Source of the DNA: Candidatus Omnitrophota bacterium
GTDB lineage: Bacteria; Omnitrophota; Gorgyraeia; JABMRG01; JAFGKX01
DNA: 64,000 nucleotides
Assembly (NCBI GenBank): GCA_043797125.1
Contig: JAZDPX010000014.1
Coordinates: 1,755 to 65,754 of the forward strand
Direction: 5' to 3'
The notes under the pieces were generated by a model. It was not told the origin of the DNA. It saw only the letters and a list, made by a program, of their open reading frames with translations, and ran no database searches. A program made the translations under genes and the position numbers. Shown here piece by piece: positions 18,001 through 35,950 of this stretch (position 1 is its first letter; the number at the start of each line of letters is the position of its first letter).

Positions 18001-19918
18001 TAGTGCCTTTAAGACCTTTACTATTTCCGCTGGCACCATACTTACCGTCAACGGTACGTTGACCGAAAGTGGGACAGCCGCTATATTTTTAAACACCGGC
18101 GATATCTATGCAAAAGGGAATATTACTGTTACTAATACTACAACCTGGGGTGGTGGGTCAGCCACTATTACTATTAACGGAAGCAGCACCCAAACCATTG
18201 AGTATGTTGCTGGTGCCAATAATAGACTCCCAAAAGTTACCATCAATAAACCGGGTGATAGCGGCGACCTTATTATTTCTGGTGGCATTTCTGTTGCTAA
18301 TGATTTTACTTTTACCACTATCGGCAATGGTTCTTTTACCACTGCTGATTCCAAGGTAAATTTTTATGAAGGCGCTTCCGGAGAAACTTTTGATATATCT
18401 GGTACATTTGGTTTAAATAATGTCCAGTTTGGCGCATGGAGTTATACCCCCACTTTTATTATTAGTGGCACCTTGACGCTTACTGGATATTTATCGATAA
18501 GTACGACTACTGGAATTACCTTTAATGTCAATGATACCATCAATGTCTCTGGTTATTTCGAGTTGGGTGGGACCAAAACAATTACTGTTAATACCGGTAC
18601 CATCAATGCAGGTGGGGCTATTTTTCTTACTAACACTGATACTTCCGGCGGAGGCACTGCTACGGTCAACATTAATGGTGCAGGTAGTCAGACCCTGAGG
18701 GGTTATGGTGTCGCCGGTCAAGGCAGGCTTCCCAATGTTAAGGTAGAAAAAGATGGTGGTACGCTTTACTTAAGAGACACCATCTCCGTTGCCGGCGACT
18801 GGACTTATGTTAAAGGAACAATAGATATCACTACCAATGACTCTACAGTAGTATTTTATGGAACTCACAATTTAGACGGTCAGGGCTCGAGCGCGACTAT
18901 GACTTTTGATAATGTTACCTTTGCCGGCGCAACTACCTTAACCGGAAACTTAAATGTTGGCAGTAACTTCTCAACCAATTCCGGTACACTTGATATAGCA
19001 ACCTACACCGCAACTGTCAGCGGCGCAACCGACTTAAATGATACCTTAACCATTTCTACCGGCACCTTTAACGCAGACGGCGCATTTGACGGAACCGGCG
19101 CCACCATTACCTTTACCGGCGAAGGAAACTTAGTCCTATCTTCAACCGTTACTGCCGTAGCCGCTAATCTTACCAATACCATGGGCGAAGTTATTTATGA
19201 CGCAGCAGCCGATCAAACCATAGACACGGGCATTACTTATCATGATTTGACCATAAACAACTCAGGCATAGCAATAGCTACTCAAGAAGCAGGCACATTA
19301 AACATTGCCGGCAACTGGACTAATAACGGCATCTTCAATGCTAATAATGGCACAGTTGCTTTTACGGATATTTCACAAGCAAGCACAATAGCAGGTAATA
19401 CTACATTCTATAATTTTGTTTGCGAAACAGCGGGAAAGACCCTGACATTTACCGCCGGCACAGAGCAAATTGTTACAAATGACTTAACCATAAAAGGCGC
19501 AATTGGTAACACCGTTACCATAAATGACACAGGCGCAGGCGCAACACCGAAGCTTAGCCTGCAAGCAGGCAAGACCCAGGATATTGAAAACGTAGATGTA
19601 ACCAACAATGACGCTTCAAGCGGACAACAGCTTATCGCGGATGGCGCATCAACCTTAAACGGTATCACCACAAATTGGTTGTTGGCCAGCGGCGTTGTTC
19701 CTCCAGCTACAACAACCACAGTTGACCTAACCAATATTTTAATAATACAGGGCGCCTGCGGCATGTACGGCAATTACTTTATGCTTCAGCCAAAAGCAAA
19801 ACCCACCATATGGGAAATGCGCGTTCAGCGCATGCTGCTTGAAAGATGGTTCTCTTTAGCAGATCTTCAGTATTTAGGCCTTACTATTCATCCTGCCTTT
19901 AAACCGAAGAAGAAATAA
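68..19918 (+). CDS. Giant repetitive surface-type protein, at least 6,616 aa. N-terminal ~300 aa unknown domain, ~9 SBBP-like beta-propeller repeats, Cna-B/CarbopepD_reg-like domain, then 6-7 long beta-helix-like tandem modules. Probably 5'-partial in this window.
   Basis: Single uninterrupted ORF. Frame is also open from nt 2 to 67 (IDPDFQGTIQSLTIDGYSGDIA), resembling internal repeat ends (ALVIDPTL), but AGGTGA lies 8 nt upstream of ATG68, so the start is ambiguous. Repeated YSTYLGGxxxDxGxGIAVDSSGCAYVTG...DAFVTKFN units and recurring STTFYDLTKTV...LQAGGTQxLxYLDVxDSDASxG...SGNNLNWSF submodules; Thr/Gly/Asn/Asp-rich. Confidence 0.85.
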   Translation: MQRTLTINGNLSFLGNSYISFDNPALAPSSQERFKISLKGDLIIDNTNAWVYAAISLCSSQDQNLRILKGTVYGAITIDKASGRVIFGDFDLTKLPLYFVPNQGQVPDSQVKFYVSSGNRLMYFTPTGICYLFSQTDPDTGVKTWVPVNLSFLDASGNAVISPELLTGALFSYFLGNDLAQYHAGLPSYYKITYTGLYPGITLSISSQQSNLKTEYVVAPGIDYCQIKLSYENITSLEIDSEGNLIIRTSVAELTELKPYVYQYIDGVKVVIDAEFEILSANSYGFKLGAYNQDYALVIDPTLWLTYSTYLGGSSQDYGRAIAVDSSGCAYVTGSTQSADFPTSNAYQGSSGGSDDAFVTKFNSAGSALVYSTYLGGSDNDAGYGIAVDSSGCAYITGNTSSTDFPLQNAFQSSKSTGSDAFVTKFNSAGSALTYSTYLGGTGSGDYGKGIAVDTSSCAYVTGYTDSTDFPLQSAFQGTKGAGYDVFVTKFNAAGSALTYSTYLGGNNNDFGRSIAVDSSGCAYVTGEARSTDFPMQSAYQGTHGGGLWDAFVTKFNAAGSTLAYSTYLGGSGGDYGYGIKVDSSGFAYVTGSTISTNFPTQDPYQGANAGNSDAFLTKFNAAGSALVYSTYLGGAVNDYGRSIAIDPSGCAYVTGETSSSADFPTQDPYQGSYGGSTWDAFITKFNSGASALVYSTYLGGTAADYGTGIAVDSAYIAYVAGYTASTDFPTESPYQGSNGGNGYNDAFVAKLNFGISVSGTVYTNEGKTANVSSGVTIGLSVHGLTKTTNTTDANGAFTFYSVPVDADNTITLFVDDNGSYEANLVSQAADGTSAISVEMYTNKIVLRYESAGPMTNTLLNRADNSGDDDIHYTFSGSDITFDTGYEVWIDSGKTYTPGAAVSVDSLENNGTFNPEANAITVRGSWDNDGTFTSSGTVSFTTASSATIDTGGVGASCDFENLTVDKSGGILQLTGNHLEVDTTLTITAGTLDMNGKNITEADTISVTGTLKLQGSETTSVAPTNNAGSTIEYSATTAIKDWTYKSIKLNGSGAVFTLPGDITANENFEITLGEFQQGANKNLTVKGDFTIAAANATFTKGTGTSKLILDGSGTTPTFYGPTTPQNLGVVQIGASPGDVYLNADFMADSITVDAGDVFYTMGYEVDAGSGGITLVTGAPGGEIDTTDQDAAGYEKDGTIITCAGAFTINAGAVFTKCSTASYESLVKMDGGGAANFKSSSQDIGNFQISTANSNITLQDALNADDITIDGSTTLTAGANAVNCAGDWDNSGSFSSSAAVTLDGTAQSILGSTTFYDLTKTVVLADTLTFDSAGEQIITHDLTLNGADTELLSIVSNNPGTRAALTLQAGGTQDLQYLDVQDSDASAGLTLAGGATSTNSGNNLNWSFPIDIDGIAYAADEAATLGNGIDIILRAYDLSGNLLAGYPQTATIAGGLGEFSFSGVTVVAGGALVFYIDSTDTGGNAGNTYTITDATDIADMQIFYSHLNVRDDTAYVTKIPVTNTILNYYDNGSDSANMIFNVNAGAMTMENISELKIDSTGSFAPGGDVTTGITVADAGSDNLVFNLDGAWTESGASAETLTIKKHSDFSGSFTKGIGTVVFSNATQTINGTQEFNNVTFTYNGTGAAAYFTINNTLTVTGTLKFAGTYGVSLSTGTINAEGNIEITNTSTRNPEGTATIKINGDGNQIITGSPAADQGQFPGKMYISKDSGDLTLTDGTFIRIGSDWTFDKMLNDGQLIVTGSTVVFYSNLTITATVAGDHGLNNVTFATSTGADYYQPEIAAGTILTVEGNLFFDGPRQVRLNTGTIWVYGDVTTDIADDDGGGSALIVFKGANPQKLTGSGAAGTGKLCDIEIAKTNGTFTLESIICVDGHWTFTSIGAGSIVNTDSTVIFYGNHNVTCEGDITMAFNNVTVAGNTRTLTGDLDVDGALIIDSGCSLNNAGNHAINVGGNWDNDNGGTFTSGNATVTFDGPSAATIYTGGAGANFDFNNVIIDKDADGTVVQISGNLWEIDGTLTITQGVLYLNGQSITNSTGLSIEDAGTLRLNGSENIPWAANDINTGTWEYIGAGAGPYNIKDFGADDYHNLTINATNDSDIFQLTAALKVYGDLTIDGGELNVTDTDYQINVAGNWENNDTFTPEEGTVILDGSGQSILGSTTFYDLTKTVTAVDTLTFDSAGEQIITHTLTLTGDVGDGDLLSLVSSTPGTRAALTLQAGGTQVLSYLNVQDSDASGGLTLAGGATSTNSGNNLNWSFPIDIDGIAYEADEAATLGNGIDILLRAYDLSGNLLAGYPQTATITDGLGGFSFNGVTAVAGGVLVFYIDSTDTGGIAGNTFTITDATDIIDMEAFYRHLNIRDDTAYVTKIPVTNTILNYYDNGSDSANMIFNVNAGAMTMEATTELKIDSTGTFAPGGDVTTGTTVPDDLIFNLDGTWTESGASAETLTIKNDCDFTGGTFTRGIGTVKFTTSGTDITGSQEFYNLSFIAPNAVYAIEALTELTVHGTLTIQATHASNAYILLNGGTINAKRDITLSVTTPGAASNLGPCTATVNINGTVDQTITGTSVGDDSVGVALPNVNISKDPGSTLFLKDYIAFCATSWTYTKGTIDIATYDSTVRFHDADMTISGSLILDNVWFSARNSDTFEIVNTLTVNNLTISGFSGSPTLNTGTINVKGDIDLSGGGSGGGGTATIKINGLNIQTITGSGTANYGKLPNLTIEKLDDTGNLVLSSIISIAGNWIFNTIGANDTVVNTGSTVVFYGNKNLDGEGDITMAFNNVIFGASGGGTRILIGDLDVDGDLTINGSSILDNNTSGTFDISVGGDWSNSYRFISGAGTVTFDGGTSATLNSGGTGQYFDFNDIIVAKTGAAVLQLSGNTLEIDGTLTINDGVIDLNGQTITNSTSLSIEDAGTLRLIGTETIPWAANDIDTGTWEYIGGGSTTYTLKDFGADGGNDYYNLIINSSVGTADTFQIDGVKNLKVAGDFSLNSGTFSANGRNQNIAGDFSLALGALYTKGGTLTFDGATAASYTDSTVGLQNVGAVSLNKTDAGDPATNNKLTLLSNMLCDSLTVDGTGGSADTLAIGANTITATGATDLNGTLTISTGTFNADGAFDGTGGTITFTGEGNLVLSSTVTNVASSLTTTMGEVIYDGAAAQDVDTGITYHDLTIDNSGGFIATQEAGTLDINGDFLINDSNAKFTAANAGNIEVYGSWTNNGTFTANSGTVTLNGTSQAINGSTTFYNLTKSVAAATTLTLDNTATQLITHTLILNGDVGQLLSLRSDSTPNQFSITLQAGGTQTLSYLDVKDSDASGGLTLAAGSTSTNSGNNLNWSFPITITGTAYQANGTSYLANGKTIEMRAYDLSNNLVSGYPLTVDTADGSGGFTFSNATVVTGGILVFHIHDETENGNVYTITDGNSFSMNLLQNFLIIRSDSAAASASNCITNAKLDIYDRGQDTNDMLFTVTAGALTMDTSSVLRVRSSGYFTPGGNVTTGTTIPSLASAVYDLDGTWTETAGDTLTIQNTCTFDGTFTKATGKVKFNTGSDTSSIIGGTQDFYDVEFNNPTGSEITFSISNTLTVYGTLTQSGAGNVRLVGGAINAKGDIVIGNTGGTGDTTGSTTININGTTDQEIISTVGVGEGKLPAVTINKPGDSGDLTLTGIVNVGNNFTYTSMGNGLFVTDDSTLAFCNASITASGTFIVNNLTFYNGRAPSYTFNIGTITVNGTLTLAGSGPIGLNNGTINAKGNLATTNTNTNCSGIMTININGDVPQEFSGSATMGQGKWPTIVINKTDTLTLKNIISIYWDWTYTAGTVDATTNDSTVAFYESHNLDGQGAGGTMAFDNVTIAGGTRTLTGNLDVDGNLTINSGCALSSGNYAISVGGDWDNDNGGTFTSGNATVTFNHASAATIYTGGVTGNYDFHQNIEINKDASTTVVQLSGNGLDVDGTFTITKGIFYLNGQPISSGTTLSVTDNGTLRLNGNEAMSWTSNSTATGTWEYVGAGAGPYNIKDFGVNDYHNLLINASNGTDVFQLTAALNVDGDLTIDSGELNVTDTDYQINVAGNWENNDTFTAEEGAVVLDGAGQSILGSTTFYDLTKTVTSPDILTFDSTGEQIITHTLTLNGDTGDGDLLSIVSDNPGTRAALTLQAGGTQSLSYLDVQDSDASAGETLNGGATSDNSGNNLNWILPTDVSGTARQTDETDPIAGIVGILLKVYDPSTGLQRGGDYTDDTDNDLGTFTMTSALMKDGDILIIYIDGAAEDANTFTIADGSDMAGVDLYDDHLVIRNEIAGSTTPITNTILNYWDSNDDADMVFAVNSGALVMSTAKDAELYINSGDYFAPGGDVTTADGIPSGQHTLDLNGTWTESGASAETLTIKNDCDFTGGTFTRGIGTIIFSTASATLDIYGDDTQDFNNVTFYGGAATFAIEADTVLTVNGTLKIEAVGGTVYVYLLTGTINAKGDITLLISTGSTDYRTVEGTATININGAGDQTITGLSSSDGISSVSLPNVNISKDTGTLYLKDFFRVSGDTWTYTKGSLDVTTYDSTVEFFSGMTIIGTHALDNVTFTGNSVPDEIAAGTILTVNDELTIGAFNYVWINTGTIYAKGNITLNGLCTNNASGGSATIIINGAGDQYITGTDTAGTGGRLPNIEISKDSGILYFDNIITLTNYDGNITWTYTKGTVDATTYGSTVAFYDTTNVDAEGMAFDNIIIGGYVALASGLDADGDLTINSGRTLDNSGNYAISVGGDWDNDNGGTFTSGNATVTFDGASAATIYTGTTGANVNDFQNVIIDKDADGTVVQLSGNTFEIDGTLTITQGVLYLNGQNITNSTTLSIENAGTLRLIGTESVPWAANDFDTGTWEFVGAGSGTYVITDYYTHYFNLLLNSGDGTDEFQLGAALDVDGDLTIESGELNVTDADYQINVAGDWTNNDTFTAEEGAVVLDGLGQSILGSTTFYDLTKTVTAVDTLTFDNTGTQIITHTLTLTGDSGDGDLLSLISDSSPNQFSITLQAGGAQVLSYLDVKDSDASGGVCLAAGANSTNSGNNLNWSFPVNITGTAYQTNESSFLANGIDITLMAYDVNGVLLSGYPQTVQTAGGLGGFTFSGVPLAVGGSYVVYINGAGTGETGNTIGTTDASAINLSVMDDHIIIRTDHASATASSYAVTNSILSRFDNDDDTDMLYTVAAGDLTVEDGVELYINTGDFFTPAGNVTTGTDPTNQESLDLNGTWTETGTETLTINGDFDSTGGTFTRASGTVKFNNVSCSITGSQDFNNVEFYADTSSKTFTISGGTILTVNGTLTLSGATGITLNTGDIYTKGNISITNNSSSGGGSATITINGSSTQTITGVGTTNYLPKVTINKSGNSGDLVLSGVIRVGNDLTFTTIGNGLFTTAGSTVCFYSGISGETFDISGIFTLNNVYFGYTVDSSVSYVINDTLTIAGTLYLQGTLNLIINTGTINTQGNITISNTSTTGGGTATININGTGSQTLDGPATAGQGKLPNVTIEKDSGTLYLRDIISVAGDWTYTKGTIDIATYDNTVAFYGTHNLDGQGTVDTMAFKNVTFAGVTTLTGNLDVNNDLTIDSGCSLDTSATDYSINVGGDWINNAGAVGFTANESLVTLDGLSQAFTGSTTFYDLSKVVTAADTLTFDNTATQLITHTLTLKGESGKLLSLRSDSNGVQYTLTLQAGGTQDLAYLDVKDSDASSGLVLVGGATSTNSGNNLNWSFAITITGTAYQTNETSFLANGINITLMAYDVNGNLVSGYPQTVQTAGGSGGFTFSNIALVSGGSYVVYINDSGTGETGNTVGTTDASAINLSVMDDHIIIRTDHASATASSYAVSNSILSRFDNDDDADMLYTVAAGVLTVENGAELYINTGDFFTPAGNVNTGTDPTNQASLDLNGTWTETGTETLTINGDFDSTGGTFTRASGTVKFNNFTGSITGSQDFNNVEFTASSAFKTFTISAGTILTVNGTLTESGTAAIFLNTGDIYAKGNITVTNTTTWGGGSATITINGSSTQTIEYVAGANNRLPKVTINKPGDSGDLIISGGISVANDFTFTTIGNGSFTTADSKVNFYEGASGETFDISGTFGLNNVQFGAWSYTPTFIISGTLTLTGYLSISTTTGITFNVNDTINVSGYFELGGTKTITVNTGTINAGGAIFLTNTDTSGGGTATVNINGAGSQTLRGYGVAGQGRLPNVKVEKDGGTLYLRDTISVAGDWTYVKGTIDITTNDSTVVFYGTHNLDGQGSSATMTFDNVTFAGATTLTGNLNVGSNFSTNSGTLDIATYTATVSGATDLNDTLTISTGTFNADGAFDGTGATITFTGEGNLVLSSTVTAVAANLTNTMGEVIYDAAADQTIDTGITYHDLTINNSGIAIATQEAGTLNIAGNWTNNGIFNANNGTVAFTDISQASTIAGNTTFYNFVCETAGKTLTFTAGTEQIVTNDLTIKGAIGNTVTINDTGAGATPKLSLQAGKTQDIENVDVTNNDASSGQQLIADGASTLNGITTNWLLASGVVPPATTTTVDLTNILIIQGACGMYGNYFMLQPKAKPTIWEMRVQRMLLERWFSLADLQYLGLTIHPAFKPKKK
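985..2335 (+). repeat. ~9 tandem SBBP-type (beta-propeller) repeats of ~50 aa within the giant ORF
   Basis: Repeating YSTYLGG(S/T)xxDxGxGIAVDSSGCAYVTGxTxSxDFPxxxAYQGxxGGxxDAFVTKFNxAGSAL. Confidence 0.7.
2750..19700 (+). repeat. 6-7 long (~670-1080 aa) tandem modules within the giant ORF, some pairs ~90-95% identical at nt level
   Basis: GNNLNW motif DNA (AACTTAAACTGG) recurs near 4266, 6868, 10103, 12665, 15262 and 17292, with a degenerate 7th copy near 19400-19690. Near-identical nt stretches, e.g. 6571-6700 vs 14961-15090 and 15545-15660 vs 17565-17680. Confidence 0.75.
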
Positions 19919-19920
19919 GG

Positions 19921-19950
19921 CGGTCGATAGTCGATGGTCTATGGTCGATA
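19921..19950. repeat. Tandem heptanucleotide array (RGTCNAT x4) immediately 3' of the giant ORF stop
   Basis: ggtcgat agtcgat ggtctat ggtcgat. The same array type follows three other stop codons in the window. Confidence 0.7.
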
Positions 19951-20011: not shown

Positions 20012-20386
20012 ATGAATCAAAAGATAAAGTATCAACATAAAGAACTTGCTGCCGGCAGATGGGCTAAGCTTTCCCTTTGCGAGCAAATGGCTAATATAGG
20101 AAGCGAAGTCAGCCGCGCCCTCAACTGGCAGAATAAAGGAAACAAGGAACTCTGCCAGAAGGCGGCAGCAAGGTCGCTTGAGCTTCTTGATTTAAGTTTA
20201 GATTCCGCGAAATCCTTCCCAAGGATTAAAGAATTTGCCCGCCTACGAGAGGCAATAGCGGATTATTTTTACGGACAGAACGAATTTTCCTCATCCGAGG
20301 TTCTGTGGCGCAAGTATTTTGACCGCTTTGCCTATTGCCTGCGCAAGTTACATAAACAGGTGCCGTTTACCAAGCCAATCGGCTGA
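20012..20386 (+). CDS. Hypothetical protein (124 aa)
   Basis: ORF with AAGGA-like RBS upstream. No recognisable motifs. Confidence 0.55.
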   Translation: MNQKIKYQHKELAAGRWAKLSLCEQMANIGSEVSRALNWQNKGNKELCQKAAARSLELLDLSLDSAKSFPRIKEFARLREAIADYFYGQNEFSSSEVLWRKYFDRFAYCLRKLHKQVPFTKPIG

Positions 20387-20448
20387 GTGTCCCCAGCCTA
20401 ATCGGCTGAGTGTCCCCATTGCAAATTCAGCATAAGAACAAAAAGTGC

Positions 20449-20477
20449 TTGCATTATTAAACACTTTATATTATAAT
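20449..20477 (+). promoter_or_regulatory. Sigma70-like promoter candidate (TTGCAT - 17 nt - TATAAT) upstream of first kinase-like gene
   Basis: TTGCAT at 20449-20454, 17-nt spacer, TATAAT at 20472-20477, ~35 nt before ATG 20512 in an AT-rich intergenic region. Confidence 0.45.
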
Positions 20478-20511
20478 ATATAAACATTTAAGTTAAATAT
20501 AAGGTAATAAT

Positions 20512-22479
20512 ATGAAGAAAATACTTAACTTAATACTAATAACTGTGTTTTTGCTGCCTCAGCAGGCGCAGCAGGCGCAAGCCTTGCGCCCAATGGCAAC
20601 GCATGCAGAACAAGAACGCGCGGAAATAACCAGAAAAAGCTTGGTGTGTCATGCGCTATTTGATGATATTGCTAACTTATTAGCTTCCGTAGAATATTTC
20701 TATTTGTGTCTTAAAAAGATACCGCAACGCGAACCACATTCTATTCCCGAAGAGGATTTTAACCTTGTTTTCGATAGCGCAAAACGCCTGTCTAATTTTC
20801 TTCATCACGTCAGAAAAACAGGTTCTTTTAGCCATTCTTTAATGGTCGAGGAATTCTCAAAGGCAGCCAATAGCGATGTTTTATCCGCGCTTAAAAGGCT
20901 TGAGGAGGCTTTTGATGAATTCAAGCGTAGTCTAAACGAAAAACATGTTAATGACCGCGACAATAGGCATCTTGATGCGTTGGGAAAGGTATTTTTAAAA
21001 CTAAAGACCACAATCGAGATTATCCAGGCACAGATATTATTTTTAGAGCGCAAAAACACAACAAAGATAGTGCGCCTTTCAGAAGTTTTGGAATATCTTA
21101 AAGCAAGAAGTCAGCTTTTGCCTAAGTCGATCAGTATTTTTAAGCACGTGAACATAAGCCCTGCGCCGGATTTTATACAGGTTAAGATCAATCACATCCT
21201 TTTGCACAGGGCCTTAGGGGAGATTATAAAAAACGCGTATGAAAACAACGAAGGCAAAGAAGATCTCAGTATAGATTTAAGCTGCAGATATTCTGTTGAT
21301 AATAACGTAGAAATAATTATAAAGGACAATGGTAAGGGGTTGCCGCAGCATCTGCAAGACGCCGGGCAGGAGCTCCTGTTTAGTTTAGAAGGCACAACCA
21401 AGAAAGAGAGCGGCGGAGTCGGTATGGCAGAAGCCAAGATTATAATAACAGATGCAGGCGGCACCATACGCGCTGAAAACAGACCGGAAGGCGGCGCGAT
21501 ATTCATAATAAGCCTGCCTATGCACGAGCGAGTAAAAGTTAGCCCTGTCGCCTGGGAAGAAATAGCTGATGACGCGATAACATTTTCTGACGTAAGCCTT
21601 ACCAAAGATTTAGTTATGACGGTTAAAGAAGCGCAATATAACGGCAAAACTTACATGGCTAAATATAACGACCTTTTTGAAAAAGAAAAAACAATCCCCC
21701 AGGCGAACATTCTAGATTATTTAAATAAAACCGGCATGCCTAATATAAGCCTGGCTAAACACTTTATCGAGCATAAGGGCAGAAAAATAATCCTCTTCGA
21801 ACTTCTGCCAAAAGGCAAATCGCTGGAACGATATATGCTGGATAATGAAAAAATTTCTGAACAATGGCTTATTGAAATTATGCTTAAAGCCTCCCGCTTA
21901 GTTAAAATGCTTCATGACAGAGGCATATTTCATTGGGATATTAAGCCAAGGCATATATACATTACAGGTAAAAATGATGTCTGGCTTGTTGATTTTGATT
22001 TGGCGTTTATTACAGACGATGAAATATTAGGCTCAGGCGTAAGCCAATACGGTAGTTTGTTCGCAAAAAGTGAGTTTTTAAATAGAGACCTTCACAAATC
22101 GGGGGTTTTACGCTACAGACCAGCTAAGACCTATGGTTGGGGCATACGGGAGCCTCGTCCGGAACACGGTGAATCTTTCCCGCCTGTTCGTATAGAAATA
22201 TATTCCCTTGCCAAGACGCTGGCTTACGCGTTAATAGGCGAAGATGCTCACAACATAAATCAGTTCAACGCCGAGGTTGCTAAAAAATATAATATTTCCT
22301 CCGGGCTGATAGCGGTTTTGGATAAAGCGCTGTCTGATAAAGAATGTGATTATGACAACGTAGACGATTTCATTCGCGACCTCGAAAATTGCTTTGATGA
22401 TAAATTCTCGCAGCCGATTAAGATAACGCAGGAAAAATTGCGTTTTGAAACCCTCGCCGCCTTCGGCGAATGCGCGTAA
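20512..22479 (+). CDS. Leader-bearing fusion protein: GHKL/HATPase_c-type ATPase domain (no recognisable H-box) plus C-terminal ePK-like kinase domain. Ends with the AFGECA tail.
   Basis: N-terminal MKKILNLILITVFLLPQQAQQAQA signal-like segment then LRPMA. HATPase_c boxes: EIIKNAYEN (N), IKDNGKGLP (G1), GGVGMAEAK (G2), GGAIFIISLP. Kinase motifs: YMAK (beta3 Lys), HWDIKPRH catalytic loop, DFDLAF (DFG-like). Confidence 0.8.
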   Translation: MKKILNLILITVFLLPQQAQQAQALRPMATHAEQERAEITRKSLVCHALFDDIANLLASVEYFYLCLKKIPQREPHSIPEEDFNLVFDSAKRLSNFLHHVRKTGSFSHSLMVEEFSKAANSDVLSALKRLEEAFDEFKRSLNEKHVNDRDNRHLDALGKVFLKLKTTIEIIQAQILFLERKNTTKIVRLSEVLEYLKARSQLLPKSISIFKHVNISPAPDFIQVKINHILLHRALGEIIKNAYENNEGKEDLSIDLSCRYSVDNNVEIIIKDNGKGLPQHLQDAGQELLFSLEGTTKKESGGVGMAEAKIIITDAGGTIRAENRPEGGAIFIISLPMHERVKVSPVAWEEIADDAITFSDVSLTKDLVMTVKEAQYNGKTYMAKYNDLFEKEKTIPQANILDYLNKTGMPNISLAKHFIEHKGRKIILFELLPKGKSLERYMLDNEKISEQWLIEIMLKASRLVKMLHDRGIFHWDIKPRHIYITGKNDVWLVDFDLAFITDDEILGSGVSQYGSLFAKSEFLNRDLHKSGVLRYRPAKTYGWGIREPRPEHGESFPPVRIEIYSLAKTLAYALIGEDAHNINQFNAEVAKKYNISSGLIAVLDKALSDKECDYDNVDDFIRDLENCFDDKFSQPIKITQEKLRFETLAAFGECA

Positions 22480-22481
22480 GC

Positions 22482-22508
22482 GGTCTATGGTCAATAGTCA
22501 ATGGTCTG
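22482..22508. repeat. Tandem heptanucleotide array (RGTCNAT x4) after P1 stop
   Basis: ggtctat ggtcaat agtcaat ggtctg. Confidence 0.65.
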
Positions 22509-22514
22509 TAAAAA

Positions 22515-23297
22515 ATGAAGAAAATAACAGCAATAATAATAGCGATTGCACTAATCTTATCAAGCGCAGAGCTATCTTCTAAGACTTTACACTTTACACT
22601 TAGCACTTTACACTGCTATTCCCTGCGCCCGATGGCGACGAAATATATCAAAATAGGCGAGGGAAGCTGCAGAGTGGTTTATCAGACGGATAGCAAGGTT
22701 ATAAAAATTCTCAAAACCTATAAACAAGTCAGGCGCAGCAAGTTTCTTTTTATGTTGCCAATGAAGTTGTGCATGCTCAAATATACTATGGCAGATTATA
22801 ATAAATATGAGTATAACAGTTATCGGAATATAATTTCCAAAAGCGTGCCTGAACGCTATAGTAACAGTTTTGTAAAAATATACGGAGTTATAAAATCAAA
22901 AAAGGGCAACATCTTGGTTGCAGAGTTAATTAAAGATGCCGACGGGAAAACATCAAAGAGCCTGGCGGAATATGGCCCTGTATATGATGATGAATTTTGG
23001 GAAAGATTAAATAAATTAGAAAAGCTATTTCGTGATGATGGAATTTATTTATTGGGCATTGATGCAGAAAATATTCATGTGAAAAGGCTTAAAAACGGAG
23101 AATTAATACCCGTTTTTGTGGATTATAAGAAATTAGCAAGAAGGTTTTATCCTCGCTGGTTATTCTCCACTAAAGCAAAGCTGGAGCAGAAAACAACAGA
23201 AGGATTTAAGCGGATAAGAGAAGGGTATAATGTTGCTTCAAAAACACAAGGAATGCTTTTAGAAAAAGCCATAACCGCCTTCGCCGAGTGCGCGTAG
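22515..23297 (+). CDS. Leader-bearing small kinase-fold protein (260 aa), paralog of flanking genes. Ends with AFAECA.
   Basis: MKKITAIIIAIALIL signal-like; LSSKTLHFTLSTLHCYSLRPMA leader. Gly-loop IGEGSCRVVYQ, KVIKILK Lys, IDAENIHV and VDYKKL catalytic-like motifs. Conserved C-terminal DNA CCGCCTTCGCCGAGTGCGCGTAG. Confidence 0.75.
   Translation: MKKITAIIIAIALILSSAELSSKTLHFTLSTLHCYSLRPMATKYIKIGEGSCRVVYQTDSKVIKILKTYKQVRRSKFLFMLPMKLCMLKYTMADYNKYEYNSYRNIISKSVPERYSNSFVKIYGVIKSKKGNILVAELIKDADGKTSKSLAEYGPVYDDEFWERLNKLEKLFRDDGIYLLGIDAENIHVKRLKNGELIPVFVDYKKLARRFYPRWLFSTKAKLEQKTTEGFKRIREGYNVASKTQGMLLEKAITAFAECA
22585..22612 (+). repeat. Intragenic tandem heptamer CTTTACA x4 in the 5' coding leader of the second kinase-like gene
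   Basis: ctttaca ctttaca cttagca ctttaca encoding TLHFTLSTLH. The reverse complement (GTGTAAAG)n also occurs intergenically at 35921-35950. Confidence 0.7.
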
Positions 23298-23298
23298 T

Positions 23299-23332
23299 TG
23301 GTCGATGGTCTATGGTCGATAGTCTATAGTTG
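23299..23332. repeat. Tandem heptanucleotide array (RGTCNAT x4-5) after P2 stop
   Basis: ggtcgat ggtctat ggtcgat agtctat agttg. Confidence 0.65.
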
Positions 23333-23342
23333 AAAGAAGAAA

Positions 23343-25736
23343 ATGAAGAAAATAATAGCAATAATAACAGCGATTATATTAGCCTTATCAGCGTCAGGGC
23401 TGTCTTCCGGCACTTTACACTTTGCACTTAACACCCTACACCATTCTTCACTTCGCCCGATGGCTATGCGAGTCGAAGAAACTCCACTTGTAGCTGATCC
23501 GAAATGGGTTAGGGGAATAAGGGAAGTGGATGTAATTGATGCCAGCAAAGATAAGGCAAAGCAAATAAGGTTTTTCGGGGAAAATAAAAGTACATCAGAC
23601 GCGGTAACAACTGTAAAAAAAGCGGAGTATGATGGTAAAATCTATTGGGCAAAGCTTAATAGACATTTTCAACTTGTGGCGATAATTCGCCAAACAAAAA
23701 TTTTTAATTATTTAAGTAAACTCAAACTGCCTGGTATTTATACGCCTGAGCATTTTCTGGAACTAGAAGACGGAATAAAAGTAATGCTTTTTAAGGAGTT
23801 CCCACCAGGCGAAACACTAAATGAAAAAATAGGTAAGCTATCGGAAAGAGAAGCTATTGAAATTGTGCTAAGGGTTGCCTATATTGTTAAATCTCTGCAC
23901 GAAAATGGAATATTCCATTGGGATATAACGCCTTATAATATTTGGATTGCCGATAACGGCGAAATAATACTTTTTGATTTTGACATCGCCTTTGCAGTAA
24001 AAGATGAAATATTAGATGATCCTAACCATGACACAGCAAAAGAAATATATATAGAGCATGGAGTTTACAAGCATGGAAACGCAAACTATATGTCATCTAA
24101 AAGGTATAAATGGCGCACAGATATTCTTGATTTTTTGTTTAAAAACGCAGAAAAAGAAGATTTCCCACCGATACAGGAGGAACTTTATTCGTTAGCTTTT
24201 ACATTGTTTGTTACGATGTTAGGTGGAGACAGCAAAAAAAGCTATGAAGATTTGCCAGAACGTCTTAAGAATTTTTTGGACAAAGCCCAGTCTAATAAGC
24301 AGTGCGATTATGACAACATAGATGATTTTATCCACGACCTTGAAGATTGTCTTCAACCAGAAAAATCCAACCAGCTCATTGAGCAGCGCCCGGATACGCG
24401 TTATACCGATGGTAGAATAAGATACTGGCTTAATGTAAGAGAGCTTGAGAGGGTGTGTAGTAAAATAGCAGGAAGCATTGATTGTTCTGAAATAATCACA
24501 GGTTCAAAAAGCGGAGACCTTAATTTTGATGCAATAATTGTAGGCAGCGCCAGGTATTTTGCAGATGAATGCGGATTTGTGCCGCTCGATTTAATAAATG
24601 ATATAGACATACATTGTTTTGGCAGCAATGAAATAGCAGGGCAATTAAAAGCTGATGCAGAGAAATTCAAAAATAGTTTTTTAAATATGCTTACTGCTCA
24701 ATTATCAAAGCTTAATATTTTTCCTAAAAAGAATAACGACGTCGGGATAGATGGCGTCTTTGGCATATCCGGCAGCCGTACGAAGATGAAAATTCAGATT
24801 TTTCATCCGTTTAAAGGGTCAACGTCGCCATTTGAATTAATAACCAGGGAAAATTTGTATAATGAAAGCGCAATGGATCTAGGTAAATCACCCTACTGCT
24901 TTTATTCGTTTGAGGCTTCTAAAAATTTGGATGCTATAAATATCCGCAATATGCATACCCCGCGTGACTGGCTAAAAAACTATTTTTATTTTGAATACTT
25001 TTACGGCCAAAACAAAGTCAGGTATGGGGAAAACCGCAGCGTATTTTTAAAGGCGAAAACACAAGATTTTTTCCAACTATTAATAAAGATAGCGAACGAT
25101 GATATGCAAGAGCTTATCGATGAATATGACAGATTGGGCTATGACAAAAGGCTCTCCCTAATTCGCTCCAAACTCTCCCAGCCGATTGGGAAGACGCAAG
25201 CTGAAAAGCTCGAGCTTACCGTCTACGGCAAAAAAGTTCAGGTGAACAAGCAAATTTTCGACTCAATCCAGAATGCGGCAGTGGAAGACGCCGCGGCGAT
25301 AGCAAAGCTATCAGAGATATTAGTAAGAATGGGGTATTTAAAACCGAAGTCAAAATTAACAAAATTACACATAGAGCATTATTTAAAATTTCCGGAAACA
25401 GTTATTTTAAAAGTCTATAAGGCCCAAGAACGGGTTTCGGGATACATCTTTGCTATAATGCCCAACGGTAACGAGGCATATATCGAACATTTAGTAGTCG
25501 CTGAACCCAATGAAAATAAGGGGATAGGAACATCTTTGATGGCGAGCGCGCTGACGCAAATAGAAAAACGGAATGTGGCCGAAGTTCAAACATTGGCTCG
25601 CAGCCCGCAAAACAAGGAAATCGTTAAAAAATTCAAATTCGAGCATATAGAAGGCGACAAATATATATTAAAAGCAACGCCTTGCATAAAAAAACCACCC
25701 CAATTGATTTTTACCGCCTTCGACGAATGCGCGTAG
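23343..25736 (+). CDS. Leader-bearing fusion protein (797 aa): N-terminal ePK-like kinase domain, central unknown region, C-terminal GNAT acetyltransferase. Ends with FDECA.
   Basis: MKKIIAIITAIILALSASGLSSGTLHFALNTLHHSSLRPMA leader (first ~130 nt ~80% identical to the previous gene). Kinase motifs: IYWAK, HWDITPYN, DFDIAF. GNAT motifs: HLVVAEPNENKGIGTSLMASAL ... FKFEH. Conserved 3' DNA CCGCCTTCGACGAATGCGCGTAG. Confidence 0.8.
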   Translation: MKKIIAIITAIILALSASGLSSGTLHFALNTLHHSSLRPMAMRVEETPLVADPKWVRGIREVDVIDASKDKAKQIRFFGENKSTSDAVTTVKKAEYDGKIYWAKLNRHFQLVAIIRQTKIFNYLSKLKLPGIYTPEHFLELEDGIKVMLFKEFPPGETLNEKIGKLSEREAIEIVLRVAYIVKSLHENGIFHWDITPYNIWIADNGEIILFDFDIAFAVKDEILDDPNHDTAKEIYIEHGVYKHGNANYMSSKRYKWRTDILDFLFKNAEKEDFPPIQEELYSLAFTLFVTMLGGDSKKSYEDLPERLKNFLDKAQSNKQCDYDNIDDFIHDLEDCLQPEKSNQLIEQRPDTRYTDGRIRYWLNVRELERVCSKIAGSIDCSEIITGSKSGDLNFDAIIVGSARYFADECGFVPLDLINDIDIHCFGSNEIAGQLKADAEKFKNSFLNMLTAQLSKLNIFPKKNNDVGIDGVFGISGSRTKMKIQIFHPFKGSTSPFELITRENLYNESAMDLGKSPYCFYSFEASKNLDAINIRNMHTPRDWLKNYFYFEYFYGQNKVRYGENRSVFLKAKTQDFFQLLIKIANDDMQELIDEYDRLGYDKRLSLIRSKLSQPIGKTQAEKLELTVYGKKVQVNKQIFDSIQNAAVEDAAAIAKLSEILVRMGYLKPKSKLTKLHIEHYLKFPETVILKVYKAQERVSGYIFAIMPNGNEAYIEHLVVAEPNENKGIGTSLMASALTQIEKRNVAEVQTLARSPQNKEIVKKFKFEHIEGDKYILKATPCIKKPPQLIFTAFDECA
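23413..23440 (+). repeat. Intragenic tandem heptamer (CTTTACA-like x4) in the 5' coding leader of the third kinase-like gene
   Basis: ctttaca ctttgca cttaaca ccctaca encoding TLHFALNTLH. Confidence 0.65.
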
Positions 25737-25810
25737 GCGGTAGCGGTGGTGGTGTCAGACACCAGGCAGTAGCAAGCTGTTAGCAGGTGTCTTACACCAT
25801 ATATTAGTAT

Positions 25811-25839
25811 TTGACATATAATAATAAAAAATGTATCAT
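25811..25839 (+). promoter_or_regulatory. Sigma70-like promoter candidate (TTGACA - 17 nt - TATCAT) upstream of the hisG leader
   Basis: TTGACA 25811-25816, 17-nt spacer, TATCAT 25834-25839. Confidence 0.35.
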
Positions 25840-25884
25840 ATGTAACGGTTATTCAAAAGAGATTGCTTCGTCGCTTGAAGAGAG

Positions 25885-26165
25885 CGAAGGCTCCTCGCAA
25901 TGACGTGGGAGAGAGGCTGGAGAAAGCTAGGGCTCCTCGCAATGACGAAGGGGTGGCTATGGTTAAAATAAGGCGAAAATGGAATATAAACCCCAAGACT
26001 CGGGTTAAAGATGCTAAGAAGAAGTATGACAGGAAGAAAACGAAACAGCAATTAAAAAAAGAGATTGCTTCGGCCCTTCCCCTCGCTTCGCTCGGGACTT
26101 TGCGGGCCTCGCAATGACGATGTAGGTTCGCCGTCAGGAGACGGCTCCTACGCAATGACGGAGAC
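25885..26165 (+). repeat. Four direct copies of CTC(C)GCAATGACG in the hisG upstream leader, plus one copy of the CCCTCGCTTCGCTCGGGAC intergenic repeat (~26080-26098)
   Basis: gctcctcgcaatgacg at ~25889 and ~25932, gcctcgcaatgacg ~26106, gctcctacgcaatgacg ~26145. The CCCTCGCTT(T)CGCTCGGGAC motif is also found at ~29510 and ~55150. Confidence 0.6.
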
Positions 26166-27057: not shown

Positions 27058-27180
27058 GAATTCAAAATTCAAAATGTAAAATTAAAAATTACAATTCAAA
27101 ATTTAAAAACCGCCAGTTTTTGAATTTTTAATTGAAATTTTACATTTTTAATTTTTAATTTTGAATTAAAACGAGTGGTT
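27058..27180. terminator. Long AT-rich imperfect palindrome between hisG and the downstream small-protein gene; possible bidirectional terminator or regulatory hairpin
   Basis: aattcaaaatttaaaaac-CGCCA-gtttttgaatttttaatt core, with extended AT-rich arms (aattcaaaattcaaaatgtaaaatt ... aattttacatttttaatttttaattttgaatt). Confidence 0.4.
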
Positions 27181-34430: not shown

Positions 34431-34521
34431 TGGCGGATTGTGTAACGGTAGCACAACGGCCTTTGGAGCCGTTTGCGGTGGTTCGAATCCCTGCCTGCCG
34501 GCAGGCAGGCACCTCCGCCAG
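34431..34521 (+). tRNA. tRNA-Gln(UUG)-like gene interrupted by a perfect 20-nt palindrome in the T-arm (no encoded CCA); possible pseudogene or unusual tRNA
   Basis: Sequence collinear with the downstream tRNA-Gln except the insertion CCTGCCTGCCGGCAGGCAGG (about 34490-34510) between GGTTCGAATC and CACCTCCGCCAG. Anticodon loop CTTTGGA gives UUG. Confidence 0.6.
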
Positions 34522-34588
34522 TTGTGCATCAAACTATTTTGAAATTTTTAGAAGAAAACCGCGCTAATAAATAAAATATTTTGTTTAT

Positions 34589-34662
34589 TGGCGGATGGTG
34601 TAACGGTAGCACAACGGCCTTTGGAGTCGTTTGCGGTGGTTCGAATCCACCTCCGCCAGCCA
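34589..34662 (+). tRNA. tRNA-Gln (anticodon UUG), CCA encoded
   Basis: TGGCGGA acceptor, anticodon stem ACGGC/GTCGT, loop CTTTGGA, T-arm GGTGGTTCGAATCCACC, 3' CCA. Confidence 0.85.
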
Positions 34663-34677
34663 ATATTAGGAAAAATA

Positions 34678-35919
34678 ATGCAGAAGTGTTCGTTTTGTTC
34701 AAGAGATAAGACAAAGGTCAACAAGCTTTTTAGCGGCCCCGGAGCATATATTTGCGATCATTGCGTAAAACTTTGCACCCAGATTTTAGCAAAAGAGCAG
34801 CGCGACACAAAAGCGCCTGAACCATTTTTACTGAAAGAGACGCCAAAGCCGACCGCCATTAAAAAGAAATTAGACGAGTATGTTATCGGCCAGGAACGCG
34901 CAAAAAGGCAGCTTTCCGTAGCCGTTTATAACCACTATAAAAGGATTACATCCAAAGAATCAACGCCTGATTTAGACGATGTAGAGCTGGAAAAGTCAAA
35001 CGTCCTTCTGATAGGCCCAACAGGAAGCGGGAAAACTCTGCTTGCCAGGACCCTTGCGCGTATCCTTGAAGTGCCGTTTGCGATATGCGATGCTACGCCT
35101 CTTACCGAAGCAGGTTATGTCGGAGAGGATGTGGAAAATGTGCTTTTGAGGCTTTTACAGAGCTGTGATTACGATACGAATAAAGCGCGTTACGGTATAG
35201 TTTATATTGATGAAATAGATAAAATCGGAAAGACCCATGACAACGTTTCTATTACAAGAGATGTTTCCGGAGAAGGAGTGCAGCAGGCGCTCTTAAAGAT
35301 ATTGGAAGGCACCGTTGCCAATGTGCCGCCTAAAGGCGGCAGGAAACACCCGCATGAAGAATATATAAAAGTAGACACAACAGATATATTATTTATATGC
35401 GGCGGGTCTTTTAACGGCTTGGATAGAATCATAAAGAAAAGGCTTGGTAAACAGTCAATAGGTTTTCATGCCGGCTTAAGCCAGTACAAGGAAAAGGCTC
35501 TCGGAGAAATCTTAAGCCACGTTGAGCCGGAGGACCTGCTTAAATTCGGGATGATACCGGAATTTATCGGCCGGTTTTCCACCATATCGACCCTTTATCC
35601 TTTAGACAAAGATGATTTAATCAGGATCTTAGTCGAACCAAAAAATTGCCTTACAAAACAGTACAAGAAATTTTTCGCAATGGACGGCGTAAAGCTGCAA
35701 TTTGAAGAAGCGGCATTGAAAGAAATAGCGGAAATGGCCCATAAAAAACAGACAGGCGCAAGGGCCCTTCGCTCGATTTTAGAAGAGATAATGCTTGAGA
35801 CGATGTATGAGATGCCTTCGCACGAAGATGTTGCTGCGTGTGTCGTTGATAAAGACAGCGTTATTAGTAAAAGCAGGCCGAAACTTGTGCTTAAGAAAGG
35901 CGTAAAGAAAGTGGCTTAA
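34678..35919 (+). CDS. clpX: ATP-dependent Clp protease ATP-binding subunit ClpX
   Basis: N-terminal zinc-binding CSFCSRD...CDHC, Walker A GPTGSGKT. True start is MQKCSFC at 34678, after the tRNA; the track ORF from 34588 overlaps the tRNA. Confidence 0.9.
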
Positions 35920-35920
35920 C

Positions 35921-35950
35921 AGTGTTAAGTGTTAAGTGTAAAGTGTAAAG
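35921..35950. repeat. Tandem heptamer array (GTGTTAA/GTGTAAA x4) between clpX and glmU
   Basis: gtgttaa gtgttaa gtgtaaa gtgtaaa g. Reverse complement of the CTTTACA heptamers inside the kinase-like gene leaders. A related AATGTAA x3 array is at ~41155-41180 upstream of dnaB. Confidence 0.65.

Follow-up and report, generated by a model that had tools for sequence, protein, structure and literature searches.

It is puzzling that Omnitrophota, with their reduced genomes, should code for huge proteins that bear signal peptides and are packed with 'cytoplasmic' enzymes. The long proteins of this phylum are rich in HATPase_c, GNAT, and methyltransferase domains, 94% of them carry a signal peptide or a TM segment, and many enzyme domains of the giants have been placed outside the membrane by topology prediction (10.64898/2026.06.07.730766), while a predatory or episymbiotic lifestyle has been proposed for Omnitrophota (PMC10066038; 10.1101/2023.11.21.568195). 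The locus analyzed here, part of a 64-kb stretch of Omnitrophota DNA (hereafter, the window), holds the same enzyme modules as the giants in small separate genes, and exposes two short position-specific tags common to small and giant family members. Our reading, to which we give an even chance, is that the array consists of small, split, Sec-exported, two-end-tagged relatives of the Omnitrophota multi-enzyme giants, which probably act inside or at the surface of a partner or prey cell.

The array comprised three plus-strand open reading frames, P1 (20512..22479), P2 (22515..23297), and P3 (23343..25736), separated by gaps of 35 and 45 nt that lacked small ORFs. The original prediction had placed three consecutive genes at exactly these coordinates and on this strand, in full agreement with both the ORF list of the window and the NCBI PGAP gene models (MFH0731729-31; 655, 260, and 797 aa). 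Specifically, P1 encodes a leader, DHp-like helices without an H-box, a HATPase_c domain, a kinase domain, and a tail; P2 a leader (residues 1-41), a YrbL-type minimal kinase body (46-238), and a tail (239-260); and P3 a leader, a kinase domain, a middle domain, a tail remnant, a GNAT domain, and a tail. The three genes are probably co-transcribed. The promoter candidate that had been put forward, TTGCAT-17-TATAAT (20449..20477, + strand), was read from the sequence and is present, but it is weak, with a -35 element matching at only three of six positions, and was missed by a consensus scan.

The gene upstream of the array encodes a repetitive surface-type giant protein of at least 6616 aa, which ends in ...KPKKK and lacks the tail. 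The array had been described as directly downstream of this gene; it is indeed near, but a 124-aa ORF (20012..20386, + strand; NCBI hypothetical protein V2A72_02250) intervenes, which had no match in Pfam, NCBIfam, PADLOC, or PDB and probably lies outside the P1-P3 family. Nor is the link to the giant gene kept in the family, since relatives stand alone amid housekeeping genes. The genes around the array were likewise housekeeping genes, and the window encodes BamA and LpxB/C/D/I, showing that the source bacterium has a diderm envelope. No secretion, protease, or sortase-like genes were found near the array and, as the relatives are also solitary, we identified no partner machinery.

The N-termini of P1-P3 all consist of MKK and 12 apolar residues, followed by LRPMA. 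In the P1 leader (20512..20598, + strand), MKK is followed by the apolar run ILNLILITVFLL, PQQAQQAQA, and LRPMA at residues 25-29; the P2 and P3 leaders shared 67% identity over 43 aa. By hydropathy, this apolar stretch of 12 residues, at the very start of each protein, was the sole hydrophobic segment in all three, in line with the prediction of a Sec-type leader rather than an internal TM anchor. Small residues of candidate c-regions were assigned by eye and hydropathy (AQA in P1, SSA in P2, SAS/ASG in P3), and by these n-, h-, and c-region features the leaders resemble signal peptides of the Sec type more than the membrane anchors of sensor kinases. In P2 and P3, LRPMA was about 20 residues past the likely signal-peptidase site. 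The motif occurred three times in the six-frame translation of the window, only in P1-P3 and at equivalent relative positions. Its codons vary at third, synonymous positions, so that the motif looks protein-selected. The Met encoded by the 'conserved internal ATG' within it is not conserved across the family, where T, A, L, I, or K occur as well, and no Shine-Dalgarno sequence is found upstream, leaving internal initiation at most as a local option. Literature searches with the motif strings gave nothing relevant.

At the other end, P1-P3 all terminate in AFxECA-stop, and ECA-stop again occurred three times in the six-frame translation of the window, exclusively in P1-P3 and at the same relative positions, so that the two shared protein ends originally noted are real. 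Conservation of the 3' module at the nucleotide level was also borne out: 20-22 of the final 24 nt were identical, and the use of the same codon in all three genes at A, F, C, and A has a chance of about 1e-3 under the codon usage of the window. The tail is probably helical and about 20 residues long, ending in phi-x-E-C-A-COOH; examples are those of P1 (22402..22476, + strand; KFSQPIKITQEKLRFETLAAFGECA) and P3 (25689..25733, + strand; KKPPQLIFTAFDECA). An internal tail remnant in P3, KLSQPIGKTQ (25170..25198, + strand), had 79% nucleotide identity to the P1 tail segment at 22402-22430. A tmRNA, for comparison of its tag with the tail, was absent from the window and from the relatives' loci.

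The heptad that follows the tail had been counted as part of the 3' module. However, (GGTCNAT)n was also located 3' of the giant gene and of a gene whose end is at 48786, and many of the window's stop codons, as well as those of related contigs, were followed by heptamer arrays of other kinds, making it a general intergenic trait of the lineage instead. A scan of 596 Gb of genomes plus JGI metagenomes with the exact 3' module, CCGCCTTCGNCGARTGCGCGTAR, returned one match per collection, which we attribute to chance because both were antisense in a FAD-binding dehydrogenase gene of high-GC organisms. We rejected the idea that the 5' and 3' modules are mutual inverted repeats, as it rested on a 7-mer with a mismatch plus the palindrome GCGC and the repeat search was negative.

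All domain calls originally made for P1-P3 were upheld by HMM scores above cut-off, with P2 being a YrbL-type kinase. The P1 HATPase_c (GHKL ATP-binding) domain (21196..21525, + strand; residues 229-338) matched PF02518 at 6e-15 (56 bits against a gathering cut-off of 26.4) and the KdpD CA domain at 1e-9. An alignment of P1 and eight histidine kinases showed invariant N, G1, F, and G2 boxes and placed the phospho-His position in a 4-residue gap; together with the lack of a HisKA HMM match, this agrees with the earlier statement that P1 has no H-box. P1 thus does not qualify as a two-component sensor, as it lacks the H-box, paired TM topology, and a neighboring receiver gene, none having been found near it. 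The P1 Hanks-type kinase domain (21583..22431, + strand; residues 358-640; YMAK, HWDIKPRH, DFDLAF) matched Pkinase (PF00069) at 2e-12 (47.5 bits, cut-off 31.7), and the P3 kinase domain (23490..24377, + strand; residues about 50-345; YWAK, HWDITPYN, DFDIAF) matched at 2e-9 (37.8 bits, same cut-off), the two being 39% identical over 292 aa (E 2e-51). Both retain the beta3 Lys (of YMAK and YWAK, respectively), the HWD Asp, and the DFD Asp, and both lack GxGxxG; in the catalytic loop, His replaces Asn in P1 and Thr replaces Lys in P3. Given these catalytic-loop changes, the missing H-box of P1, and the missing Gly-rich loop of both, the activity of P1 and P3 is not assured.

The P3 middle domain (24378..25262, + strand) was homologous to the C-terminal domain of the relatives P0022 and P0034, in which a ...EQAA tail comes after it. 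Four homologous segments shared an invariant GS...DxD, a possible counterpart of the G[SG]...[DE]x[DE] of polymerase-beta-type nucleotidyltransferases; there was no Pfam match, the best hit of a profile search against PDB had an E of 0.08, and the AF2 model, built from four sequences, had a pLDDT of 33. The GNAT acetyltransferase domain of P3 (25383..25616, + strand; residues 681-758) matched Acetyltransf_1 (PF00583) at 1.8e-6 (28.6 bits, cut-off 20.7) and Acetyltransf_10 at 27.3 bits (cut-off 23.6). The body of P2 came from a different family, matching YrbL-PhoP_reg (PF10707) at 6e-12 (46 bits, cut-off 31.5); over residues 46-238, P2 was 40% identical to P0167 and 35% identical to P0168. These homologs (217-219 aa) have neither leader nor tail, which identifies the tags of P2 as add-ons. 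The AF2 model of P2 was of low confidence (pLDDT 47.8, pTM 0.42), and its fold matches were all kinases, the best being NleH2, NleH1, and OspG (E 5e-3, TM 0.27-0.40), none with E<=1e-3.

The junctions between the genes bear on the origin of the array. Junction J1 (22457..22636, + strand) runs from the end of the P1 tail through the stop codon and a (GGTCNAT)4 spacer to LRPMA of the P2 leader, and J2 (23275..23464, + strand) likewise from the end of the P2 tail through a (GGTCNAT)5 spacer to LRPMA of P3. The two were about 78% identical over about 180 nt of tail, spacer, and leader, with sharp edges, and were the only full copies. In the leader, pS was 0.33 and pN 0.21 (pN/pS about 0.64), while the bodies were saturated or unrelated, which indicates that the junction was copied, or homogenized by gene conversion, in recent times. 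The proposed exchange of modules therefore stands in part: the junction is far younger than the bodies, fitting gene conversion or duplication, but no dedicated cassette machinery was found in the window. That the termini are portable and sit on unrelated bodies was supported by the untagged homologs of P2 and by relatives that pair them with other enzymes. Read-through from P2 into P3, which share a frame, was ruled out by a second in-frame TGA in the spacer.

We then placed the array among its relatives. An exhaustive phmmer search with the P1/P3 kinase domain gave 59 matches at E<=1e-10; a word-index homolog search with P1 and P3 had returned only the query itself and generic kinases or histidine kinases. 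The approximately 45 relatives included small proteins as well as giants of 2.5-7 kaa, in which many of the matches lay. Of 44 relatives, 32 had an N-terminal hydrophobic leader and 25 carried L-[R/A/S]-[P/V]-x-x behind it; Ala was the last residue in 19 of the 44, compared with 6 of 88 control kinases (Fisher p = 1.4e-6); a subgroup of the LRVPV type ended in L or I, not Ala. Exact ALRPMA was found in two other genomes (L005 and L008), and tandem leader/tail genes were also present in L008 and L009. In every relatives' locus examined, both tags together were confined to family members, and relatives join the same leader and tail to other enzymes. By sequence comparison, then, the termini are a family trait that is not unique to the window, a bracket of the same kind being shown on roughly every second kinase relative from other genomes. 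We propose to delimit a doubly tagged family by a leader with L-[RAS]-[PV]-x-x and a C-terminus of phi-x-x-[small]-A, features that P1, P2, and P3 all have. LRPxA had only three matches in 70,492 aa of giant relatives, two of them at positions 27 and 47, and was thus an N-terminal motif that is not recurrent inside the giants, leading us to reject the idea that LRPxA and ...AA are half-sites of internal cleavage at polyprotein junctions. In PADLOC, only generic Ser/Thr-kinase models (PD-T4-6, mad6, MkoA) matched, at the kinase core, and with NCBIfam MAD6 at 49 bits against a cut-off of 460, P1-P3 do not belong to the known anti-phage defense systems covered there.

Taken as a whole, P1-P3 may be viewed as small members of a lineage-specific, modular, doubly tagged enzyme family, which would also be the source of the kinase modules in the phylum's multi-enzyme giants. 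Each of the three has four parts: a Sec-type leader (MKK, 12-residue apolar core, small-residue c-region); a junction motif, (A/S)-L-R-P-M-A; an interchangeable body (histidine-kinase-like ATPase plus kinase, YrbL kinase, or kinase plus middle domain plus GNAT); and a tail of about 20 residues ending in phi-x-E-C-A-COOH. The leader would take the proteins through Sec, LRPMA could serve, where leader and body meet, as another site of recognition or processing, and the C-terminal pentapeptide could be a tag recognized in sorting, processing, or quality control. Outside the cytoplasm, ATP and acetyl-CoA are normally lacking. We infer that the bodies act where both cofactors are present, the most plausible place being a partner or prey cell or its surface, giving P1-P3 a putative effector function. 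The array would have grown by junction duplication or gene conversion, by capture of foreign bodies at the start codon, and by fusion, of which the internal tail remnant of P3 and its middle domain, C-terminal in P0022 and P0034, may be traces.

Other explanations account for parts of these data. The enzymes could instead be envelope residents, exported by Sec but retained by the producing cell in its periplasm or at its surface, for instance as accessory enzymes of a coat of giant protein, with the tail docking to that coat or to the envelope. We consider this unlikely, since the cofactors would normally be lacking there, the proximity to the giant gene is not conserved in relatives, and the neighboring giant ends in ...KPKKK without the tail, even though the signal-like leaders without additional TM segments, the nearby surface-type giant, and the predicted location of many giant-protein enzyme domains outside the membrane (10.64898/2026.06.07.730766) would all suit it. 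That P1-P3 are ordinary diverged paralogs, whose ends are a signal peptide and what is left of a recent tandem duplication or gene conversion, with no sorting role for LRPMA or AFxECA, seems improbable to us. The presence of only two full junction copies, the absence of the exact DNA module from public contigs, the modest constraint on the leader (pN/pS about 0.64), and the generic heptads are what such paralogs would leave, but the motifs are position-specific, distant relatives in other genomes, otherwise diverged in sequence, have the same kind of leader motif and a tail ending in Ala, and the body of P2 is from a different family whose members have neither end.

Translation might also, or mainly, start at the LRPMA ATG, yielding cytoplasmic enzymes and a minor exported or tethered leader form. 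The Met is present in P1, P2, and P3, the junction repeat stops exactly at ...CGCCCG-ATG-GC, P2 read from this Met (MATKYIKIGEG) resembles the true N-termini of its homologs (MAKEQFLGLPKIGEG), and the enzymes require cytoplasmic cofactors. Nevertheless, we hold this to be a decidedly weak contender, as the family has T, A, L, I, or K at this position as often as M, no Shine-Dalgarno-like sequence precedes the ATG although the genome uses such sites, and the leader ORFs are open and signal-like in P1-P3 and at least 25 relatives. An integron- or shufflon-type system, in which a site-specific recombinase swaps bodies between conserved 5' and 3' sites, is close to refuted. The conserved, GC-rich DNA at either end of the genes, together with bodies from different families, had made it conceivable, but the 64-kb window contained no integrase, invertase, or transposase, the junctions had no attC-like inverted repeats (the inverted-repeat list held only chance-level pairs), the 5' motif varies at synonymous sites, and public data held no further copies; we accordingly discarded an integron-like cassette array.

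Beyond the exported-effector reading, a broader conjecture, to which we assign a low probability, is that the leader motif (a signal peptide followed by A-L-R-P-x-A or a variant) and phi-x-x-[S/E/Q]-[A/C]-A-COOH form an undescribed two-ended Omnitrophota sorting or processing signal, routing ATP- and acetyl-CoA-dependent enzymes, giants included, out of the cell and into or onto a host or prey, with tandem leader-body-tail cassettes being the units from which giants are built by junction deletion, or their breakdown products. If the tags are such signals, one could list which enzymes these uncultured episymbionts or predators export, the cognate machinery would be searchable by phylogenetic profiling, and the formation of giants by fusion of tagged cassettes would become testable. 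Unlike the giants, P1-P3 are small enough for expression and assay.

Several known systems resemble the array in part. P1 and P3 are similar to PknB/Stk1/StkP in that they exceed the Pkinase cut-off and their catalytic loop and DFG-equivalent align with those of Stk1 and PknB, but they have HWD rather than HRD, DFD rather than DFG, and no Gly-rich loop, and a signal peptide precedes the kinase, whereas the PknB type has a cytoplasmic kinase, a TM segment, and PASTA domains. In the YrbL family (PF10707), to which the body of P2 belongs by score, the 41-aa leader and 22-aa tail of P2 are extra. The minimal effector kinases NleH and OspG, as the best fold matches of a low-confidence model, are a weak lead only. 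LPXTG/sortase, PEP-CTERM/exosortase, and T9SS CTD systems likewise combine an N-terminal export signal and a C-terminal tag on unrelated bodies; in contrast, the array tail lacks a TM helix, a basic cluster, or a folded 70-100-aa domain, its tag being a pentapeptide that forms the extreme end of the protein, and P1-P3 matched none of the sorting-domain models of NCBIfam. Kinase, GNAT, and possibly nucleotidyltransferase activities are typical toxin and effector chemistries, and polymorphic toxins (Rhs, CDI, MAF) share with the array tandem genes, conserved trafficking parts, and swapped enzymatic modules. The array, however, conserves both ends rather than the N-terminal part alone and has a Sec-type leader, and neither immunity genes nor T5, T6, or T7 secretion genes were located near it. 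The C-terminus is akin to ssrA-like degrons (...LAA-COOH) and to substrates of tail-specific proteases in having an apolar residue at -5, small residues, and a terminal Ala (relatives end in ...SAA, ...QAA, or ...AAA), but that of the array, E-C-A, is acidic at -3.

The Omnitrophota giants ('Archaeovorins'; West-Roberts et al. 2023, 10.1101/2023.11.21.568195; 10.64898/2026.06.07.730766) share with the array their phylum, a HATPase_c/GNAT/kinase repertoire, and an N-terminal signal peptide. Additionally, the P1/P3 kinase subfamily was embedded in proteins of 2.5-7 kaa, a methyltransferase was present in relatives, and several giant relatives shared the leader-motif type and the Ala-ending C-terminus. 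Unlike the giants, the array divides its modules among three small genes, whose products of 260-797 aa have no internal TM helices; every gene has its own leader and tail, and a recently copied junction lies between them. The original view that this is not a described system thus requires division: the kinase module and domain repertoire are those of described Omnitrophota long proteins, while the leader/tail bracket is mentioned in neither of the two preprints.

The pair of terminal tags carried by P1, P2, and P3, the three consecutive array genes, was shown by sequence comparisons to be family-wide and position-specific. Within the window, six-frame translation of the whole stretch returned three occurrences each of LRPMA, the motif that follows the leader, and of ECA-stop, the end of the C-terminal tail, all in P1-P3, bearing out the shared ends of the original prediction. 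LRPMA occupied residues 25-29 of P1 and residues 37-41 of both P2 and P3, while ECA was at the extreme C-terminus of all three. The DNA-level conservation claimed for the 3′ end also held, with 20-22 of 24 nt identical across the genes and a chance of ~1e-3 of the same codon being used at four positions of the module. The leaders comprised MKK, a 12-residue apolar run, and a c-region of small residues, and no further hydrophobic segments were found in P1-P3 outside them; this shape looks like that of a cleavable Sec signal peptide rather than a sensor-kinase anchor. BamA and the Lpx pathway are encoded in the window, and the cell is therefore diderm.

The genes are on the forward strand (P1, 20512-22479, 655 aa; P2, 22515-23297, 260 aa; P3, 23343-25736, 797 aa), and their products were exact matches to NCBI proteins MFH0731729-31 from a 97.7-kb contig of a 'Candidatus Omnitrophota bacterium' MAG, each alone in its cluster in a set of 15 billion proteins. 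Upstream are a giant ORF (68-19918 in the ORF listing) and a 124-aa ORF (20012-20386), and hisG is downstream of P3. A single P1-P3 transcript is likely, given the short gaps (35 nt for P1-P2, 45 nt for P2-P3), the lack of terminator-like hairpins between the genes, and a strong promoter-like site after P3 (TTGACA-17-TATCAT, 25811-25839). The promoter TTGCAT-17-TATAAT proposed for the array was present at 20449-20477, but its -35 element is weak and it was not among the consensus-scan sites. A 22-nt AT-rich tandem repeat (20458-20501) overlaps this candidate, and two directly repeated copies of a 22-23-nt sequence, AGCCAATCGGCTGAGTGTCCCC, run across the stop of the 124-aa ORF (20373-20418).

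Several features of the surrounding DNA were also noted. As the giant ORF extends uninterrupted to base 1 of the window (1-19918), its protein must exceed 6616 aa; blocks such as ...NSGNNLNWSFP... recur in this highly repetitive protein, which ends in ...KPKKK, without the family tail. Between P3 and hisG, REP-like repeats containing CTCCTCGCAATGACG (25876-26165; at least four copies, with partial inverted partners) give spurious ORFs on both strands. Two tRNA-Gln(TTG) genes (34431-34502 and 34589-34662) lie 87 nt apart, the second overlapping the 5′ end of a 443-aa ORF as listed (34588-35919), the true start of which is probably further downstream.

The domains between the tags are in themselves ordinary. 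Pfam matches above curated cut-offs upheld the predicted kinase, GHKL, and GNAT folds: HATPase_c (6e-15) and Pkinase (2e-12) in P1, YrbL-PhoP_reg (6e-12) in P2, and Pkinase (2e-9) and GNAT (2e-6) in P3. In PDB sequence searches the P1 and P3 kinases aligned with Stk1, PknB, and StkP, in which HRDIKPQN and DFG stand where P1 and P3 have HWDI(K/T)P.. and DFD. At 39% identity (E 2e-51), the two kinase domains are paralogous by sequence. The ATP-binding domain of P1 retained the N, G1, F, and G2 boxes and, when aligned against eight histidine kinases, had a gap at the phospho-His position, making it histidine kinase-like without an H-box, as had been suspected. P3 residues 345-640 had no match in Pfam or PDB and were homologous to a domain present twice in the relative P0022 and once at the end of another, P0034, with GS...DxD invariant throughout; for this region a putative nucleotidyltransferase fold is only a lead. 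Searches of P1-P3 with PADLOC and NCBIfam gave nothing beyond generic kinase similarity.

While word-index searches with P1 and P3 gave nothing past generic kinases, an exhaustive search with P3 recovered 59 proteins at E<=1e-10. These relatives belong to the P1/P3 kinase subfamily (~40% identity; consensus YHWDIKPxNIW...FDFDLAF), one being annotated as Omnitrophota, and include many giants (3668, 4434, 5785, 6273, 6685, and 7094 aa among them) and many proteins of 350-830 aa. Termini were read in 44 relatives, the control being 88 generic kinases recovered by the same search. An N-terminal hydrophobic segment was present in 32 of the 44, and in 25 it was followed within ~45 residues by L-[R/A/S]-[P/V]-x-x, in forms including LRPTA, LRPLA, LRPIA, LRPMA, FRPAA, LRVPV, and LAPPS. 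C-terminal Ala occurred in 19/44 relatives versus 6/88 generic kinases (p = 1.4e-6), usually as phi-x-x-[S/Q/A/E]-[A/S/C]-A (...IDSAA, ...IRSAA, ...IEAAA, ...IRCAA, ...LEQAA). The ends are thus not unique to the window, since the leader motif and Ala-ending tail recur in relatives from other genomes, and exact ALRPMA was found in two (contig L005, ORF 2580-3551; protein P0056 on contig L008).

In every relative locus fetched, the tags were confined to family genes. On L008, a gene 25 nt upstream of P0056 ends in ...AAIACAA and is preceded by another leader-bearing ORF, and a further contig, L009, has two leader-bearing genes side by side; the relatives are otherwise solitary and surrounded by housekeeping genes. 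LRPxA matched three times in 70,492 aa of giant relatives, twice at residues 27 and 47, and by this distribution is an N-terminal feature; a polyprotein junction, which would recur internally, was ruled out. In L005 (2580-3551, 3562-5982) and L008 (6243-6767, 6883-9975), a leader-bearing ORF is followed at ~10-115 nt by a leaderless, tail-carrying ORF, and these pairs are either genuinely split genes or assembly frameshift errors. Additionally, a Ser-rich K-[ST]-[SA]-S-[AST]-G motif occurs both a few residues N-terminal of the kinase domain and 15-25 residues ahead of the C-terminal ...SAA in P0024, P0026, P0029, P0043, P0054, P0056, and P0057; it is not obvious in P1-P3 and may be a linker, cleavage site, or phosphorylation site.

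The similarity between the P1|P2 and P2|P3 boundaries was that of a single ~180-nt junction repeat with sharp edges, spanning the tail end, stop, spacer, and leader as far as ...CGCCCGATGGC. The copies were ~78% identical and the P2 and P3 leaders had pS 0.33 and pN 0.21, whereas the bodies are unrelated or 39% identical in protein, which indicates recent copying or homogenisation of the junction, long after the bodies had diverged. Moreover, the tags are portable among unrelated bodies. The nearest P2 homologues, P0167 (219 aa) and P0168 (217 aa), aligned with P2 residues 46-238 and had neither leader nor tail, and P2 read from the LRPMA Met (MATKYIKIGEG) begins much as P0168 does at its true N-terminus; the leader was apparently attached to the P2 body at its original start codon. 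The P0167 contig (L007) looks archaeal, as it also has a histone-fold gene, TrmB, and a pyruvoyl-dependent arginine decarboxylase; an archaeal source for the P2 body would be consistent with this, although its identity to P0167 is only 40%. Fusion was evidenced in P3, which looks like a leader-kinase-middle domain-tail protein joined to a GNAT-tail protein, because the first half of the tail recurs internally as KLSQPIGKTQAEKLE, which shares 79% nt identity with the P1 tail and is located just ahead of the GNAT domain, and because in P0022 and P0034 the homologue of the middle domain directly precedes an ...EQAA end.

The heptad assigned to the 3′ module in the original prediction belongs outside it, since (GGTCNAT)n also occurs 3′ of the giant gene's stop and after a gene that ends at 48786, and other heptamer arrays follow stop codons at 27059, 35921, 41150, and 45093, as well as in L005 and L008, often as inverted pairs. 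The pattern GTCNATRGTCNAT occurred 12 times versus 1.1 expected. Arrays were at 19922-19950, 22483-22510, 23299-23330, 27059-27167, 35921-35970, 41150-41189, 45093-45139, and 48791-48812 in the window, and at 10728-13500 in L005 and 938-956, 14436-14549, and 16135-16191 in L008. The units (GGTCNAT, AGTGTWA, AAATGTA, AATTCAA, and others) lie in short spacers directly 3′ of stops, some inverted pairs being predicted to form long hairpins (27059-27167). The heptamers have the look of an intergenic element shared across the lineage, with a possible terminator-like or regulatory role, and we know of no description of such a post-stop element. In the P2 and P3 leaders, the stretch that links the apolar core to LRPMA (TLHFTLSTLH...) is also a heptamer array, (ACTTTAC)n (22584-22614, 23411-23434); its unit is that of the intergenic array at 35921-35970 in reverse complement, and the stretch may thus derive from an intergenic repeat.

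The observation behind the original prediction is confirmed and its interpretation partly supported. We propose that P1-P3 would be exported by Sec, that LRPMA at the leader-body boundary would have a processing or recognition role, and that the C-terminal pentapeptide would be recognised for sorting, C-terminal processing, or quality control. The enzymes would then work at a site that supplies ATP and acetyl-CoA, for which the interior or surface of a partner cell is the most plausible candidate. That they are instead accessory enzymes resident in the envelope is unlikely, and that they are ordinary paralogs with no particular role for their ends is somewhat more doubtful. Internal initiation at the LRPMA Met, yielding cytoplasmic isoforms, is judged improbable and at best local to this array, as this Met is not conserved across the family and no SD sequence was found at it. 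The suggested recombinase-driven cassette system is scarcely credible, given that the window has neither a recombinase nor an attC-like site and that public data contain no further copy.

Activity inside or at the surface of a partner is in keeping with proposals that Omnitrophota live as predators or episymbionts (PMC10066038; 10.1101/2023.11.21.568195) and with their giant multi-enzyme proteins, which bear signal peptides (10.64898/2026.06.07.730766). The leader and tail motifs are unmentioned in 10.64898/2026.06.07.730766 and 10.1101/2023.11.21.568195, and searching the literature for these strings gave nothing relevant. What is new relative to these accounts is a two-ended tag common to small and giant Omnitrophota enzymes, together with a recently homogenised junction linking three differently built genes.
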